A stretch of 64,000 nt of DNA from Bacteroidota bacterium. GTDB taxonomy: Bacteria > Bacteroidota > Bacteroidia > Palsa-965. A model generated the notes under the pieces. That model searched no databases and had not been told where the DNA came from. It saw only the letters and a program-made list of their open reading frames with translations. Positions 5,268 to 62,580 of the stretch are shown piece after piece. How positions within the stretch are numbered: the stretch's first letter is position 1; each line of letters begins with the position of its first letter. A program made the translations under genes and the position numbers. The stretch is from contig JAAFIA010000007.1 in NCBI GenBank assembly GCA_013298545.1, positions 19,590 through 83,589 on the forward strand, written 5' to 3'.

Positions 5268-5561
5268 TCAGAGGTATTTGATGCCTTCCGGAGTCACATA
5301 AAATGTGGGATGGCGGTAGGGTTTATCGTTTGATGGTTCGAAGAAAGGGCCGATGTCTTCGGGCGAAGAAGCGGTAATTGCTGTTGCCGGAACAACCCAT
5401 ATACTCGTGCCTTCGCTGCGGCGTGTATAAAGGTCGCGGGCATTTTGCAAAGCCATTTCTTTATCGGGAGCATGTACGCTACCGCAATGTTTGTGTGGCG
5501 TTCCGGTTTTTGCTTGTACAAAAACTTCCCAAAGTGGCCATTGATTATCTGTTGTACTCAT
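5268..5561 (-). CDS. paaB: 1,2-phenylacetyl-CoA epoxidase subunit PaaB
   Basis: 97 aa, MSTTDNQWPLWEVFVQ...YVTPEGIKYL, which is the typical PaaB length and sequence. Confidence 0.85.
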   Translation of the reverse strand: MSTTDNQWPLWEVFVQAKTGTPHKHCGSVHAPDKEMALQNARDLYTRRSEGTSIWVVPATAITASSPEDIGPFFEPSNDKPYRHPTFYVTPEGIKYL

Positions 5562-8062: not shown

Positions 8063-8216
8063 AGCATCAACTCATCTAATAATATGTATTTCAAATAATT
8101 AATGTTCCGAACAGTAATGATTTCAAATCCTGCGGAGCGTGCGTGATTTAAAAAATATTGTCTTTATATATTTCAGTCATCACAATTTCCTCATCACCCT
8201 CATTTCTCATACCTTA

Positions 8217-8380
8217 GTAACTGTTTAAATTTTATCCTTTGATTTTGTTATGCGCCTTTTTGCACCATACTTCGTTGCGTTTTTCGACCGTAGCCGCCCT
8301 GCTATGGCCTTCAAAACACGCCTCGTCTGGCACAAAAAGTCATCATAACAATTCTCAAAAACAAATTTTAAACAGTTACT
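8217..8380 (+). repeat. Copy 1 of a dispersed repeat of about 165 bp with 13–14 bp terminal inverted repeats (MITE-like; could also be a small structured RNA)
   Basis: Its ends are gtaactgtttaaa ... tttaaacagttac. It is near-identical to 38083–38246, and to 62353–62516 in reverse orientation. Confidence 0.7.
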
Positions 8381-8408
8381 TAGACCAAACTAAAAAACCA
8401 CCCTACAC

Positions 8409-8918
8409 ATGAAACCAGCAGATTTTGTAAAAGCGTTTTTGCCTTTTGCTAAAAAGACCGAAGAAAAAACAGGCATCAGTGCCATTGCTATTCTCGCACA
8501 AGCCGCCCTTGAAAGCGGTTGGGGCGAAAAAGCGCCGGGCAATATGTTCTTTGGCGTAAAAGATACCGACGGCCTCAATGGCAACGAACAATTGCTAACT
8601 ACAACAGAATACAGCCGCCGTTCGGATTTGAAATTTCCAGAAATCATCAGCATTACGCCTGTGGTTCGCAATGGTCAAAAGTATTTCAAATACATCGTGA
8701 AAGATTATTTCCGCAAATACAAAACACCGGAAGAATGTTTCACCGATCACACTAAATTTTTCTTCGACAATAAACGCTACAAAGCAGCATTAGCAGTACG
8801 TCAAGATCCATACAAATTTATCGACGAGATTGCTAAAGCGGGTTATGCTACTGCTCCAGATTATGCCGTCACGCTAAAAAAAGTTGCGGCTACCATTGAA
8901 AAGAATATCCCTAAGTAA
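8409..8918 (+). CDS. Glucosaminidase-domain protein (GH73, FlgJ/mannosyl-glycoprotein endo-β-N-acetylglucosaminidase-like)
   Basis: AILAQAALESGWG is the hallmark of the glucosaminidase domain. 169 aa with no signal peptide. Confidence 0.7.
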   Translation: MKPADFVKAFLPFAKKTEEKTGISAIAILAQAALESGWGEKAPGNMFFGVKDTDGLNGNEQLLTTTEYSRRSDLKFPEIISITPVVRNGQKYFKYIVKDYFRKYKTPEECFTDHTKFFFDNKRYKAALAVRQDPYKFIDEIAKAGYATAPDYAVTLKKVAATIEKNIPK

Positions 8919-8937: not shown

Positions 8938-9140
8938 GCTGACGCAGACTTGAGACGCAGACTTGAGACGTGAGACGTGAGACTGGAGACTTGAGACAGG
9001 AGACTTGAGACTTGAGACTTGAGACGCAATACAACAAGAGAAACAGCGCGAAGTGCGGAGAGCGCGAAATACTCGCTCTGTTTCTCCGCTCTTCGCTCTA
9101 AAACTATGCGGTCTCATATCTCTCATGTCTAAAAACTATA
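8938..9140. repeat. Array of 7-bp tandem repeats (ACTTGAG / ACGTGAG / ACGCAG, about 13 units), an internal hairpin, and a gtctcatatctctcatgtct tail related to the locus at 2536–2662
   Basis: The sequence reads gacgcag acttgag acgcag acttgag acgtgag acgtgag actggag acttgag acaggag acttgag acttgag acttgag. Inside it, gagaaacagcgcg...cgctctgtttctc is an inverted repeat. The tail shares gtctcatatct with locus 1. Confidence 0.6.
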
Positions 9141-11065: not shown

Positions 11066-12667
11066 TCACCAAACAATTTTTCGAGCAATGATAAAGACAA
11101 ACAATGACCCAAACAGGACAACCATCAACCACGCCAGATAATCGCCATAGCGGGTATAAAATGTTTCTCCTTGTGTGGAATAGATGCGTTGCTTGATAGC
11201 CGTCTCAACCCACCATGCCGTTGCTTGCTCAATATCGCCGCGCTGATTGATGAAACAAGAAATTCCAGTATTGGCCGAACGCGCAATGCTTTTACGCGTT
11301 TCTATCGCGCGAAGTCGTCCGTAACGCAAATGCTGCCGATAGCCAGGTGTATTGCCCCACCAACCATCATTCGTAATGATGAAAATAAAATCGGCACCCA
11401 GCCGCACATAATCGCCCACATAATCGCCGTAAATAGATTCGTAACAAATCACTGGGGCGATTTTCCCCTGCCCTTTTTTCGGCGCAACAAAAATTTCGCG
11501 ATCATCTTGCATGCCCAAGCTACCCGATGTTCCTCCCAAATCAATGGCAAAATTTTCGAGTGGTTTGAGAATTGCGGGGAAAGGCATTTTCTCTACACCC
11601 GGAACCAATTTCGATTTGTGGTAAATCTGCACTTCGGGCATGCTATCAATTTGCAAGGCCGTATTGTAACTATCAAACGAGCCGGGCATATTTTTAAACT
11701 TCCGCGCTGTTGCAGAAAGTTTATCGCCCTCTTCATAAATTTTTGCTGTGGATGCTCCTGTTACAATCTTAACACGTGGGTATTTTTTTTGAAAATCGCG
11801 AAGCATGCGCACACTTGTACTAAACTCCAACTGATGTTCCCAAATGTCTTCTACCAAAGCCGTTTCCGGCATCACCACATAATCTGTTGTCGAATCCATT
11901 TTACTTTCAGCCAATTTTAACATCACTTCCAATTGTCCCCGAAAATCGGAATTGAACTTCACATAAGGATCAATATTGGGCTGTACCACAACCACATTCA
12001 ATCCATACGTACGATTTGCCGTAACATCAAAACGCGAATATTGCACCAGCGAAATGACAATCGGAATAAAAAGCAACACCGCTGTTGTACTCCACCAAAC
12101 AAGGCGTTTCGGCCATTCACGCATCCAGGTATTGCGATTGCTCCAGCATTCAAAAAGCAAAACATTGATGAGCAAAACCCAAATACTTCCACCAAATGTG
12201 CCCGTGTATTCGTACCATTGAATGAGTGCAGGCGAATCGGCAAACCCATTTCCGAGTGTCAGCCAAGGCCAAGAAATATCCCAGTAATGATGCAAAAATT
12301 CAAAACTTACCCAGACCGGAATCAATGCAAATGATCCGATGCGTACAGGTAAAAAACGTTTGATTTTATGGAAAACCAAAAATGTCAAAGCCATGAGCAA
12401 ACTATTACTCACCATAGCCATCACAGAACCGCCAGCCGATGAAATCCAAACCCACCAAGTACAAACCACATTCCAGATCAAGAATGCCACAAATGCGTAC
12501 ATATAAAGATGTCGCGCACGCAAGCGATTGTCGGTACTCACAGTTTGCTGCATGAGCAACAGCGGAATAAACGCTACAAACAGTAATGGTGAAAATCCCC
12601 AATCGGGCCAAGCCGCACACAACAAGACTGACGAAACAAAAGACCACAAAAAAAGTTTCCCGCGCAT
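11066..12667 (-). CDS. lnt: Apolipoprotein N-acyltransferase
   Basis: 533 aa with a multi-TM N-terminal domain and a carbon-nitrogen hydrolase domain that includes the VICYESIYGDYV catalytic-Cys region. Confidence 0.85.
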   Translation of the reverse strand: MRGKLFLWSFVSSVLLCAAWPDWGFSPLLFVAFIPLLLMQQTVSTDNRLRARHLYMYAFVAFLIWNVVCTWWVWISSAGGSVMAMVSNSLLMALTFLVFHKIKRFLPVRIGSFALIPVWVSFEFLHHYWDISWPWLTLGNGFADSPALIQWYEYTGTFGGSIWVLLINVLLFECWSNRNTWMREWPKRLVWWSTTAVLLFIPIVISLVQYSRFDVTANRTYGLNVVVVQPNIDPYVKFNSDFRGQLEVMLKLAESKMDSTTDYVVMPETALVEDIWEHQLEFSTSVRMLRDFQKKYPRVKIVTGASTAKIYEEGDKLSATARKFKNMPGSFDSYNTALQIDSMPEVQIYHKSKLVPGVEKMPFPAILKPLENFAIDLGGTSGSLGMQDDREIFVAPKKGQGKIAPVICYESIYGDYVGDYVRLGADFIFIITNDGWWGNTPGYRQHLRYGRLRAIETRKSIARSANTGISCFINQRGDIEQATAWWVETAIKQRIYSTQGETFYTRYGDYLAWLMVVLFGSLFVFIIARKIVW

Positions 12668-12694: not shown

Positions 12695-12940
12695 AATTAG
12701 AAAGTTTTGAATTTTGAAATTGGCGAATTTGAAATTAGTGAATTAGCAAATTGGCGAATTGATGAATTTGTTAATTCACCAATTCGCCAACAAAAAAGGG
12801 GCCTTGAGCGCGAGGAAAAAATTTACCAATTACGCGCAAGCATGCGCGAGGGAAAAATTCGCCAATTGCGCGCAGGCATGTGCGAGGGAAAATTCACCAA
12901 TTCGCCAATTGCGCGCAGGTACCTGCGAGGGAATATTATT
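12695..12940. repeat. Repeat-dense intergenic region: multiple AATTCGCCAATT / AATTGGCGAATT boxes in both orientations plus about 3.5 tandem copies of a 36-bp unit
   Basis: The tandem unit is aattcgccaattgcgcgcaggcatgtgcgagggaaa. The hairpin ttggcgaattg...caattcgccaa has an 11-bp stem. The units are contiguous with no unique spacers, so this is not a CRISPR array. Confidence 0.6.
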
Positions 12941-37497: not shown

Positions 37498-38009
37498 GGT
37501 GCTAAGGTATCGAAATCGTATAATTTCAAGGGGGTGGTGTCTGAACACAGAGGCAGCAACTCCGCTAGCGTTTTTTTCAAAACCGGATGCCGTAAATTCC
37601 CTGCAAGATCGACTAAGGGTTGCAGCACAAAAATACGCTCGTGCAGGTAGGGATGCGGAATTTTTAATTGTTCTTGATCCACAATTTCTTGATCCCAGAG
37701 TAAAATGTCAAGGTCGATGATACGCGGCCCCCAATGTATTGTGCGAATACGCCCCATCTCACGTTCAATGCGCAAGAGTTCTGTTAACAGTTCTTCCGGA
37801 TTTATGGTAGCCTTCAATTCCACTACTTGATTGAGAAAATCGGGTTGGTCGGTTTTACCCCAAGCACCTGTTTCGTAACAAGGGGAAACTGCGTTTACCC
37901 AAACACCCGAAATGCCCGCTATCAGGCGAACCGCATGGCGCAGATTGGCTTCGCGGTTTCCAAGATTTGTCCCTAAACCAATAAAGATATGTGTACTTAA
38001 CGTTTGCAC
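37494..38009 (-). CDS. folK: 2-amino-4-hydroxy-6-hydroxymethyldihydropteridine pyrophosphokinase
   Basis: Contains IGLGTNLGNR...IDLDILLW. 171 aa. Confidence 0.85.
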   Translation of the reverse strand: MQTLSTHIFIGLGTNLGNREANLRHAVRLIAGISGVWVNAVSPCYETGAWGKTDQPDFLNQVVELKATINPEELLTELLRIEREMGRIRTIHWGPRIIDLDILLWDQEIVDQEQLKIPHPYLHERIFVLQPLVDLAGNLRHPVLKKTLAELLPLCSDTTPLKLYDFDTLAP

Positions 38010-38082
38010 CCGACAAAAATACAGCAGAAATTCATCTGTCGTTTTAAAATAAAACGAAGGCCAAGAACGACCTGATGAATAA

Positions 38083-38246
38083 GTAACTGTTTAAATTTTA
38101 TCCTTTGATTTTGTTATGTGTCTTTTTGCACCATACTTCGTTGCGTTTTTCGACCGTAGCAGCTCCGCTATGGCCTTCAAAACGCGCCTCGTCTGGCACA
38201 AAAATCCATCATAACAATTCTCAAAAACAAATTTTAAACAGTTACT
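38083..38246 (+). repeat. Copy 2 of the MITE-like repeat of about 165 bp
   Basis: It has the same terminal inverted repeats, gtaactgtttaaa ... tttaaacagttac. It differs from copy 1 at about 8 positions. Confidence 0.7.
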
Positions 38247-38333
38247 AAGCAAACACGAAAACTTTTTGAAGAGCCTGATAATCGTTTGTTCCGTGTAAAT
38301 TCGCACCTGATTTATTTTTAAACTCATTCTCTC

Positions 38334-50567: not shown

Positions 50568-52337
50568 AAAAAAATCCCGTCTCGAGCTAAGAGGTTGCTG
50601 AAAAAGTCCTGCCATTTTTCAGGCAATTAAAAAAAACCGGTTAAGGAAATGCTCTTTTCCTTAACCGGTTTTAATTTTTTAGTTCCCTGAAGCCATGTCG
50701 CAAAATAGCCATATAGCCTTTTTATCCTCGATATTTCTTCTTTAGGATGCCTTATGCGGTGAGTTTTATAATTCTTTTAAGGTTTACGGTGAAAATTGCC
50801 ATCGCCCCTTGCATTTGCATGTTGCTCATACCGTATGCTGTTGCTCTATCATACCCGTGTACATTTTTCAATTCACTATTCTTGGCCTCGATTTTATAGC
50901 GATGCTTTGCTTTTTCTTTAAAATAATCTGTTTCTTGAAAAGCAATTTGTTCTTGATGTAGTTCTGATTTTATACGAACAGAATATGTTTTAGCTTTTGC
51001 CCCTTCTTTGTAACAACCGTTTTTTAGAGGGCAGGTTTTACATTTTTCAATATCAAAATAGTATGTATTGACTTGATTCTTCCCAAAGTTTTTCTTGCCT
51101 TGTCGAGCCTTTCTAATTGCTAGGTGTCCCGCAGGGCAAACAAACATATCCGCATCTTTATTGTAATCAAATTTATCTTCTTCTTTCCTAAAGCCTTGTG
51201 TGATCGAAGGGTTTAGTTTAGCGACCATTTTAATCTCTTGTTTGTTTGTTAGTTTAAGATTCTCCTTTCCTGAGTATGCCGCATCGCCAATAACCGTGTC
51301 AACATTAATTCCATTTTCTTGACTAATTGCTAGTAATTTAGGCAGCTCTGGACCATCTCCTTTTTCTGCTGATGTTATAACTGCGGCTGTTATGATACGT
51401 TCCTCGGTCATGGCGAGGTGGGTTTTATAGCCAAAAAATGAATGTTCTGCTGATTTATAGCCGGTCTTTGCGTCGGTATCTTTTGATAGCGTTAGGTTTT
51501 CTTGAGCGTCTTCGATAGTTTCTTTTAGCAAGTTTAGCTTTTCCTTTACCCCTGGGATGGCGCAAATCGATTCATCTTTGGAGATACACTTTTCCAACTC
51601 TTGGCAGTACGATAGTTCTTGCGCTAGATCATTGGCCGTATTCTTTTCAGGCATTCGCTCTTTCCATTGCTCGTCGAAGGTGTAAATGGTTTTTCGAAGT
51701 TGTTTAGAGCGTTCGCGTAATACATCCATGGCCGAAAATGGATTGGATTTCGATAAGGTATGTGTCGCGTCAACAATAATAGATTTGGATCGGATAACCC
51801 CTTTTTCTATAGCGATAGATACTGTTTTACTAATCAATAGATTCATTAAGTCGGTGTCCTTCAAACGAAGCTTTCTGAATTTTGTAAGAGAACTCGGATT
51901 AATTACTTCTTCTTCGGGACTCATTTCTAAAAAGTACTTAAACGACATGTCAAAACGGGAACGCTCAACAACGTCAATATCGGATAGTGTATAGATTGTC
52001 TTTAATAACAAGTACTTGAACATGCGAATCGGGCTCTGGGCTAGCCTTCCATTGTTTGGGCAGTATTTGGTTGCCAACTCTTCATGCACAAATGAAAAAT
52101 CGATTAAATCATTAATCTTTCTCAGTAAATTATCTTGTGGAACAATAAGCGAATACAAAGAACTGTATTCGCTGAAGCCTATTTTTTCTTGTATGGGTAG
52201 CATCTATATGAGATTTATACGCTCATACAAGGTCAAAAAAAGGGGGAAACTTTTTTTAAAAGTTTCCCCCTTTTTTTTAACATGGTGTTCTTAATGGACT
52301 TTTTCAGCAACCTCCGAGCTAAGACGGGATTTTTTTG
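50568..52337 (-). mobile_element. IS1182/IS5-superfamily insertion sequence of about 1.77 kb, with roughly 40-bp imperfect terminal inverted repeats
   Basis: The left end aaaaaaatcccgtctcgagctaagaggttgctgaaaaagtcc matches the reverse complement of the right end ggactttttcagcaacctccgagctaagacgggattttttt. It contains a single transposase gene and is AT-rich. Confidence 0.7.
50752..52203 (-). CDS. IS1182/IS5-family DDE transposase
   Basis: 483 aa. The N-terminal transposase domain ...RMFKYLLLKTIY...SSLTKFR is DUF772-like, followed by a C-terminal DDE region. Confidence 0.8.
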   Translation of the reverse strand: MLPIQEKIGFSEYSSLYSLIVPQDNLLRKINDLIDFSFVHEELATKYCPNNGRLAQSPIRMFKYLLLKTIYTLSDIDVVERSRFDMSFKYFLEMSPEEEVINPSSLTKFRKLRLKDTDLMNLLISKTVSIAIEKGVIRSKSIIVDATHTLSKSNPFSAMDVLRERSKQLRKTIYTFDEQWKERMPEKNTANDLAQELSYCQELEKCISKDESICAIPGVKEKLNLLKETIEDAQENLTLSKDTDAKTGYKSAEHSFFGYKTHLAMTEERIITAAVITSAEKGDGPELPKLLAISQENGINVDTVIGDAAYSGKENLKLTNKQEIKMVAKLNPSITQGFRKEEDKFDYNKDADMFVCPAGHLAIRKARQGKKNFGKNQVNTYYFDIEKCKTCPLKNGCYKEGAKAKTYSVRIKSELHQEQIAFQETDYFKEKAKHRYKIEAKNSELKNVHGYDRATAYGMSNMQMQGAMAIFTVNLKRIIKLTA

Positions 52338-62047: not shown

Positions 62048-62352
62048 CTGGGTTTGGGTATTTTATGGGTTTAATTTTAGTAAATGTAATGAATCGAACG
62101 AAACTGTTTGTGGGCTATTTCTATGTACTTATTTGGAACTATAATCTCTTTAGTTGCTTGCTTTTCAACTTCAAAATCTGCCAAGTTTTCGCAAAGAGCG
62201 TAGAGGATTTCATATTGTTTTTTGAATTGTGGGCTTTGCGAACATTACGCCTTGTTTGGGTTATATGAATTTATATGTCGCGAAAAATTTACCTATTTCT
62301 TTGTGTCAAAACAACAAACACCGCCGAGTAGCACCTGTTGATTTTCTACTAA

Positions 62353-62516
62353 GTAACTGTTTAAAATTTGTTTTTGAGAATTGTTATGATGACTTTTTGT
62401 GCCAGACGAGGCGTGTTTTGAAGGCCATAGCAGGGCGGCTACGGTCGAAAAACGCAACGAAGTATGGTGCAAAAAGGCGCATAACAAAATCAAAGGATAA
62501 AATTTAAACAGTTACT
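62353..62516 (-). repeat. Copy 3 of the MITE-like repeat of about 165 bp, inverted, and near-identical to copy 1
   Basis: Its reverse complement matches 8217–8380 almost base-for-base. Confidence 0.7.
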
Positions 62517-62580
62517 AAAAACTTCGATTCAAAAAGCCGCCAAAAAATGCGATCTTTGCTGCCTCAATCGAAATCCTGTT

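Follow-up and report, generated by a model that had tools for sequence, protein, structure and literature searches.

A 163-bp non-coding repeat occurs in three near-identical copies (95–100% identity) at unrelated intergenic loci of the window, by which we mean the whole 64-kb stretch of DNA under analysis. That the repeat is a non-autonomous mobile element (MITE), as an earlier note on this DNA had proposed, is strongly supported. The copies end in terminal inverted repeats, are flanked by 3-bp target-site duplications, are insertions relative to congeners (copies 2 and 3), and carry ends and targets that resemble those of IS5-family insertion sequences; no Rfam family matches them at threshold, and related full-length insertion sequences exist. 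We consider it likely that the repeat is a Tourist-like MITE mobilized in trans by an IS5-family transposase. Outside Porphyromonas, the catalogue of Bacteroidota MITEs is poor, and the present element, for which the exact ends, the 3-bp TWA duplication, and one precise empty site are established, provides a clean case from an uncultured lineage of Bacteroidia. As a mobile element, it is an unlisted example of a well-known kind and reveals no new mechanism.

Element structure and insertion sites

The three repeats described in the earlier note are real and full-length, starting at 8217, 38083, and 62353, with the third one inverted. The copies, their terminal inverted repeats, and their target-site duplications are as follows:

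Positions 8217–8379, plus strand: MITE copy 1, 163 bp, terminal inverted repeats at 8217–8229 and 8367–8379
Positions 38083–38245, plus strand: MITE copy 2, 163 bp, terminal inverted repeats at 38083–38095 and 38233–38245
Positions 62353–62515, minus strand: MITE copy 3, 163 bp, inverted, terminal inverted repeats at 62353–62365 and 62503–62515
Positions 8214–8216 and 8380–8382: target-site duplication TTA of copy 1, read from the sequence
Positions 38080–38082 and 38246–38248: target-site duplication TAA of copy 2, read from the sequence and from the empty site in the congener locus L006
Positions 62350–62352 and 62516–62518: target-site duplication of copy 3, TAA on the plus strand and TTA in the orientation of the element

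Copies 1 and 3 are identical at 163 of 163 positions by blastn, and copy 2 matches both at 155 of 163, its eight substitutions falling at element positions 37, 39, 79, 82, 84, 102, 123, and 124. Repeats of 163 bp at 95–100% identity far exceed what chance would produce. A perfect 13-bp terminal inverted repeat, GTAACTGTTTAAA, is present at all six MITE termini, and these six are its only occurrences in the window when up to two mismatches are allowed. The unit had been given as 164–165 bp with terminal inverted repeats of 13–14 bp. Its actual length is 163 bp, the end coordinates originally assigned to it intrude one base into the flank, and position 14 is mismatched between the two ends, which leaves the 13-bp perfect repeat standing. 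A low-stringency blastn search of the 64-kb window revealed no further partial or diverged copies.

A check for target-site duplications had been proposed in the earlier note, which did not mention the 3-bp direct repeats that in fact flank all three copies. These flanking duplications are constant, being 3 bp long and of the form TWA in 6/6 MITEs, namely the three window copies and three elements of other genomes (L001, L003, and L005) described in the next section. A 2-bp duplication would need different boundaries between copies; symmetric ends are obtained only with a duplication of 3 bp.

The whole element forms one long imperfect inverted repeat whose arms are approximately 70% complementary over their full length. 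Folded as DNA, it reaches −28.6 kcal/mol (z = −5.8), and the RNAs of the two strands reach −49 and −66 kcal/mol (z = −7.7 and −9.5, respectively). The longest ORFs inside the element have approximately 50 codons and a transposase-coding ORF is absent, in agreement with the original statement that a unit of this size is too small to encode one; the 53-aa translation had no homologue among 5.8 billion proteins. An Rfam search of the whole window at gathering thresholds, the comparison suggested at the outset, gave no match. When Rfam was searched permissively (E-value mode), a single match was obtained with the plant miRNA precursor MIR2630, at 22.9 bits against a gathering threshold of 144. This match spans the full-length element (window 8213–8384) and most likely reflects merely the shared shape of a long AT-rich hairpin.

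Congener loci were found by an SppA search, which returned the identical protein as well as relatives at 96% (L006, a 324-kb JGI contig) and 94% (L007, NCBI MAG GCA_051649445.1). Both loci are collinear with the window at only approximately 85% nucleotide identity and therefore represent congeners, not sister strains. A further locus (L105) comes from the same JGI contig as L006 and carries an fbp gene product 98% identical to that of the window. At the copy 2 locus, L006 reads ...ACGACCTGATGAATAAGCAAACA..., whereas the window reads ...TGATGAATAA, the 163 bp of the element, and TAAGCAAACA.... The empty site in L006 is precise and contains TAA once, within ...TGATGAATAAGCAAACA.... The blastn alignment between the window and L006 is accordingly broken at 38086/38246, and L007 is likewise empty at this site. 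In L105, copy 3 is absent between flanks that are homologous on both sides, as seen in a gapped alignment across a diverged intergenic region. The search for empty sites that had been recommended thus yielded a precise one for copy 2 in two related genomes and an absence between homologous flanks for copy 3. No copy of the MITE was present in 43 kb of congener DNA, and none was found in 80 metagenomic loci of GH73 glucosaminidase homologues (63–83% identity). For the site of copy 1, an exact-protein look-up of PaaB yielded a single source, the short-read contig of the source strain itself.

Since the sites of copies 2 and 3 are empty in the congeners, these copies are insertions and not an ancient regulatory module, and insertion at the TTA/TAA sites took place after the split from the nearest sequenced relatives. 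Because copies 1 and 3 are 100% identical, whereas the congeners share only approximately 85% nucleotide identity with the window, transposition in this lineage appears to have been recent. A short-read assembly of the same strain ends 26 nt inside the element (L008), a break that is expected for a repeat. In practical terms, the element accounts for assembly breaks in the short-read MAGs of this organism and could serve as a marker for strain typing.

Terminal repeats and the candidate transposase family

The 21-nt left end of the element was scanned in 185,579 species-representative genomes (GTDB), among which the source genome is not included, and five loci were found in four of these genomes. 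The same 21 nt had no match in 241 million metagenome records. A Salinivirgaceae MAG contains two homologous elements of 184 and 203 bp (L001 and L003) with TAA/TAA flanks, which are approximately 75–80% identical to the window element in both arms. In addition, a Chitinophagales MAG carries a mini-version of approximately 70 bp, and a Prolixibacteraceae MAG carries a left-end fragment. In Dysgonomonas sp. 521 (L005, NZ_QVMO01000012.1), the 21-nt match is a solo end that adjoins a different MITE of 194 bp, with terminal repeats GAGCCTGTTTAAATTTTA and GAGTCTGTTTAAATTTTA and TAA/TAA flanks. At L005:6607–6836, a truncated GAGCCTGTTTAA end comes immediately after the 194-bp MITE and a solo GTAACTGTTTAAATTTTATCC end comes next, and another solo end, GAAACTGTTTAAATTTTA, is located at position 5340 of the same locus. 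The ends in L005 have the appearance of insertions, nested or abutting, that targeted the TTTAAA within the terminal repeat of another element.

Viral contigs (IMG/VR) were scanned for the GAGCCTGTTTAAATTTTA-type repeat, and all seven matches (7/7) were preceded by TTA or TAA. Three of the seven share one sequence, the reverse strand of which encodes ...KRWIVERTFSWFDNYRRLCRNYE...LLNKI followed by a stop codon that lies inside the terminal repeat. Through the KRWIVERTFSWFDNYRRLCRNYE peptide, an element of approximately 860 bp was found (L116), which begins with GAGCCTGTTTTAAAATGG preceded by TTA and ends with GGAAAATTTAAACAGGCTC followed by TAA; because these two trinucleotides differ, its flanks form no clean direct repeat. 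The two ORFs of this element match Pfam DUF4096 and DDE_Tnp_1, and its two halves score 99.7 and 59.7 bits with NCBIfam NF033580 (IS5 family). A tblastn search of plasmids revealed an annotated IS5-family element on the Bacteroides fragilis plasmid CP103159.1 (L120), which runs from GAAACTGTTTTGAATTG to CAAAACAGCTTC between TTA and TTA and therefore has a clean 3-bp TTA duplication. The same search revealed a remnant on Emticicia oligotrophica pEMTOL03 (L121) with the end ...AAATTTAAACAGCCTC followed by TTA. At L108:3907–4102, L115:1100–1150, and L121:1215–1250, the transposase frame of these related IS5-family elements ends in ...LLNKI, with its TAA stop codon in the right terminal repeat AAAATTTAAACAG. 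As the stop codon falls inside the right repeat, two constraints act on AAAATTTAAACAG, which has to encode protein and also to bind the transposase.

The repeat core of the window element, CTGTTTAAATTTTA, and its TTA/TAA flanks match Bacteroidota insertion sequences of the IS5 family (DUF4096 and DDE_Tnp_1, NF033580). The MITE end GTAACTGTTTAAATTTTA has 14/18 bases in common with the GAGCC-type end GAGCCTGTTTAAATTTTA, and its first ten bases show one difference from the GAAACTGTTT ends of B. fragilis and Dysgonomonas. Bases 2–4 of the MITE end are TAA and differ from the GAGCC, GAGGC, and GAAAC ends of the IS5-family elements. Judged from these end sequences and flanks, GTAACTGTTTAAATTTTA falls within the Bacteroidota IS5-family end set G-NNN-CTGTTT(A/T)AA with TWA targets.

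A search for an autonomous partner with the same terminal repeats, as had been advised, was successful in part. Full-length insertion sequences with closely related ends and a TTA/TAA target were found, whereas an insertion sequence with the exact GTAACTGTTTAAA (GTAAC) ends was absent from the viral, plasmid, phage, GTDB-representative, and metagenome collections. Thus, the assignment to the IS5 family rests on the likeness of ends and target. The window itself encodes no NF033580-type transposase. A blastn comparison of the MITE and the Salinivirgaceae and Dysgonomonas elements with plasmids and phages gave no meaningful match. A scan of viral contigs for the transposase C terminus together with the repeat (TTRAATAAAATTTAAACAG) returned only the known elements and one chance match in a coding region. 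The viral contigs also gave 16 single, unpaired matches to AGTAACTGTTTAAAWTTT, mostly TGA-flanked and in homologous phage regions, which were judged to be chance. No paper containing GTAACTGTTTAAA was found in the full-text literature, where the matches to terminal-repeat strings were primer coincidences only.

On the basis of the related ends, we infer that this genome possesses an IS5-family transposase that moves the element. The candidate mover would be a DDE transposase of approximately 250–270 aa of the DUF4096 and DDE_Tnp_1 type (NF033580), which would recognize the terminal GTAACTGTTTAAA(T/A)TTT repeats. Integration would occur at TWA (TTA/TAA) via 3-bp staggered cuts, with the result that the trinucleotide is duplicated. 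Transposition presumably follows a cut-and-paste route, and any effects on neighbor genes would probably be incidental; copies 2 and 3 are inserted between divergent core promoters.

Comparison with known mobile elements

The closest counterparts come from the same phylum. The Bacteroidota IS5-family insertion sequences (L120 on the B. fragilis plasmid, the GAGCCTGTTTAAATTTTA-ended element of the IMG/VR contigs L108 and L116, and the Emticicia remnant L121) have G-N3-CTGTTT(A/T)AA ends and TTA/TAA flanks, as in the MITE. However, they are approximately 0.86–0.9 kb long and encode a transposase, whereas the window MITE has 163 bp and is non-coding.

Plant Tourist MITEs are hairpin elements of 100–300 bp that make a TWA duplication, carry a CTGTTT-like motif in short terminal repeats, and prefer sites near genes. 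Tourist elements, which are mobilized by PIF/Harbinger, and the window MITE have in common the 3-bp TWA duplication, the CTGTTT-like ends, the size of the hairpin, and a preference for insertion near genes. Harbinger transposons, placed in one group with the IS5 family, make canonical 3-bp duplications (PMC12730594). Nevertheless, Tourist elements reside in eukaryotic hosts and need a second, Myb-like protein, and their likeness to the window MITE is functional and holds at the superfamily level only. The window copies tie a bacterial MITE family to IS5-family elements whose behavior resembles that of eukaryotic Tourist/Harbinger elements.

The Correia elements (NEMIS/CREE) of Neisseria are abundant intergenic MITEs of 100–155 bp, which often lie upstream of genes and form transcribed hairpin leaders. 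Their terminal repeats measure 26 bp, they duplicate TA, and outward promoters as well as sites for RNase III and IHF are documented in them. Similar to the window MITE, they are short, intergenic, and gene-proximal and carry terminal repeats. However, neither the 26-bp repeats nor the TA duplication, the outward promoters, or the RNase III/IHF sites were found in the window MITE.

Within Bacteroidota, the MITEs of Porphyromonas gingivalis share terminal inverted repeats with IS5-family ISPg elements, for example GAGACTGTTGCA; the terminal inverted repeats of MITEPgRS/MITE464 and BrickBuilt match those of ISPg1, ISPg4, and ISPg9 (PMC4596501). These MITEs are likewise non-autonomous and have IS5-like ends, and GAGACTGTTGCA shares a G..ACTGTT pattern with GTAACTGTTTAAA. 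However, they are larger, tandem repeats with units of 23 or 41 nt occur in their interior, and their duplications are reported to vary in length, whereas the window MITE is a simple palindrome with a constant 3-bp TWA; sequence similarity between the two is limited to the first few terminal bases. The Cardinium MITE MITECca01 was also considered as a relative and proved to be IS982-derived and unrelated. A REP/BIME palindrome was rejected as well. REP/BIME sequences (TnpA-REP associated) are palindromes of 20–40 bp with a GTAG/CGTC tag and no target-site duplication (PMC3733652), whereas the unit described here has 163 bp, terminal inverted repeats, a 3-bp duplication, and no GTAG/CGTC tag.

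Neighboring genes and alternative explanations

The closest database proteins of the host region come from Bacteroidia MAGs, and T9SS sorting domains are found among the neighbor genes. The copies are intergenic and 5′ of the GH73 glucosaminidase gene, sppA, and fbp, just as the earlier note had placed them. Copy 1 precedes the Glucosaminidase (PF01832) gene (8409–8918) by 29 bp and lies downstream of a PaaE-like reductase gene at a distance of approximately 420 bp. Copy 2 is located 88 bp upstream of sppA (38334) and separates it from folK/HPPK, a divergent gene on the minus strand that starts at 38009, and copy 3 is located 65 bp upstream of fbp (62581), with a divergent gene for a T9SS-sorted protein (start 62047, minus strand) on its other side. 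Three promoter-proximal insertions are thereby marked, at the glucosaminidase gene, folK/sppA, and fbp. Both folK and sppA have conserved blocks that resemble core promoters; copy 2 is placed between these blocks and interrupts neither, and an exact TATTTTTG box is present near 38022 on the minus strand. A consensus scan (TTTG ... TAnnTTTG) detected no outward-facing Bacteroidota promoter in the MITE; the same scan found weak one-mismatch boxes within the terminal repeats, which face inward. Given the short distance between copy 1 and the start codon, transcripts of the glucosaminidase gene probably include this copy in their 5′ leader.

The earlier note had offered a conserved cis-regulatory or small-RNA module as an alternative, that is, a promoter, leader hairpin, small RNA, or terminator placed upstream of unrelated genes and kept by selection. 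In favor of such a module, 3/3 copies have a start codon less than 90 bp away, the hairpin is very stable on either strand, and copy 1, standing within or downstream of the glucosaminidase promoter region, is probably in the leader. Further in its favor, between the Salinivirgaceae and the window family, 7/42 hairpin pairs are changed on both sides and still paired (four sequences, two lineages), pairing is kept at 98.8% as compared with 35–43% in slid controls of the same four-sequence alignment, and the eight substitutions of copy 2 leave the fold unweakened. However, the element is absent from the orthologous folK–sppA and T9SS–fbp intergenic regions of the congeners and from the 80 loci of GH73 homologues, its orientation to fbp differs from that to sppA and the glucosaminidase gene, and it has the target-site duplications that characterize transposition. 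Rfam offers no family at threshold, the promoter-like boxes are weak and face inward only, and the compensatory changes, coming from four sequences of two lineages, are equally explained by arms that co-evolve with a transposase. We therefore regard the regulatory module as very unlikely and set this alternative aside. The compensatory changes hint at a structural constraint beyond transposase binding at the tips. They may reflect selection on the fold or the co-evolution of both arms with one transposase, and are suggestive rather than conclusive. That the full-length hairpin is itself under selection, either because transposition proceeds via folded single-stranded or cruciform DNA or because the hairpin was co-opted as a leader that tunes the downstream gene, seems unlikely to us. 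If true, the element would be more than a passive IS5 passenger, and the role as a leader would be exemplified by copy 1, located 29 bp ahead of the start codon of the glucosaminidase gene.

The identity of the transposase was weighed in the same manner. Mobilization by another family with short AT-rich duplications, either IS630/Tc1-mariner (TA, as in Stowaway- or Correia-like elements) or IS30 (2–3 bp), would be consistent with the absence of an exact-ended IS5 partner from the collections searched, and an asymmetric element would formally allow a 2-bp TA duplication to be read from the empty site of copy 2. Moreover, IS30-family elements are common in Bacteroidota and make duplications of 2–3 bp. 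However, the 2-bp reading shifts the boundary between copy 1 and copy 2, whereas the 3-bp reading fits all six MITEs; the flanks are all T-W-A, which is sequence-specific targeting and not a general AT preference; and the terminal 18 bases are close to those of elements that encode IS5 transposases and have TTA/TAA flanks. A mover from these other families is accordingly improbable. The window also contains a complete insertion sequence of another family, with the following features:

Positions 50592–52313: IS1182-family insertion sequence, complete
Positions 50752–52203, minus strand: its transposase gene, 483 aa (NCBIfam NF033551, 368 bits)
Positions 50592–50609 and 52296–52313: its terminal repeats AGGTTGCTGAAAAAGTCC, perfect over 18 bp
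Positions 50583–50591 and 52315–52323: 9-bp direct repeat CGAGCTAAG

In favor of it as the partner, this element contains the sole transposase gene in the window and is itself inserted relative to the congener; transposases of this family are distantly related to those of IS5, and the window protein gives weaker matches to IS5 models. Its ends, AGGTTGCTGAAAAAGTCC, are unlike GTAACTGTTTAAA, however, and its duplication is 9 bp (CGAGCTAAG) instead of the 3-bp TWA. On these mismatched ends and the duplication length, the IS1182 element was ruled out as the partner of the MITE, and mobilization by it is extremely improbable. A Tourist-like MITE moved by an IS5-family transposase is the reading that we prefer.

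The IS1182 transposase comprises the Pfam domains DUF772, DDE_Tnp_1, and DDE_Tnp_1_6. The element occupies the loop of a hairpin in an intergenic region flanked by convergent genes, and the congener locus L105 has an intact terminator-like hairpin with no insertion at this site. Its interior forms a separate contig (L122) in the short-read assembly of the same strain, which suggests that there are several IS1182 copies.

Several minor features were observed in the surrounding DNA. The folK gene of the congener L006 (L006:9326–9922) is called as a protein of 198 aa, with a start that falls in the sequence corresponding by orthology to the insertion site of the MITE. This call is probably an over-extension, as the window and L007 support a 171-aa protein. 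Just 3′ of the glucosaminidase gene, a tandem array of AGACTTG (11.6 units) occupies 8946–9025, and a 14-mer related to it, TGAGACGCTAGACA, is repeated 3.4 times in a 3′ intergenic position at 2538–2584, with an inverted partner at 2640–2664. In addition, two adjoining blocks of tandem repeats lie at 12709–12937, upstream of a gene for a 533-aa membrane protein (11066–12667, minus strand). These blocks consist of three 15/16-nt units and of two to three 36/43-nt units with GCGCGC-rich palindromes, respectively.
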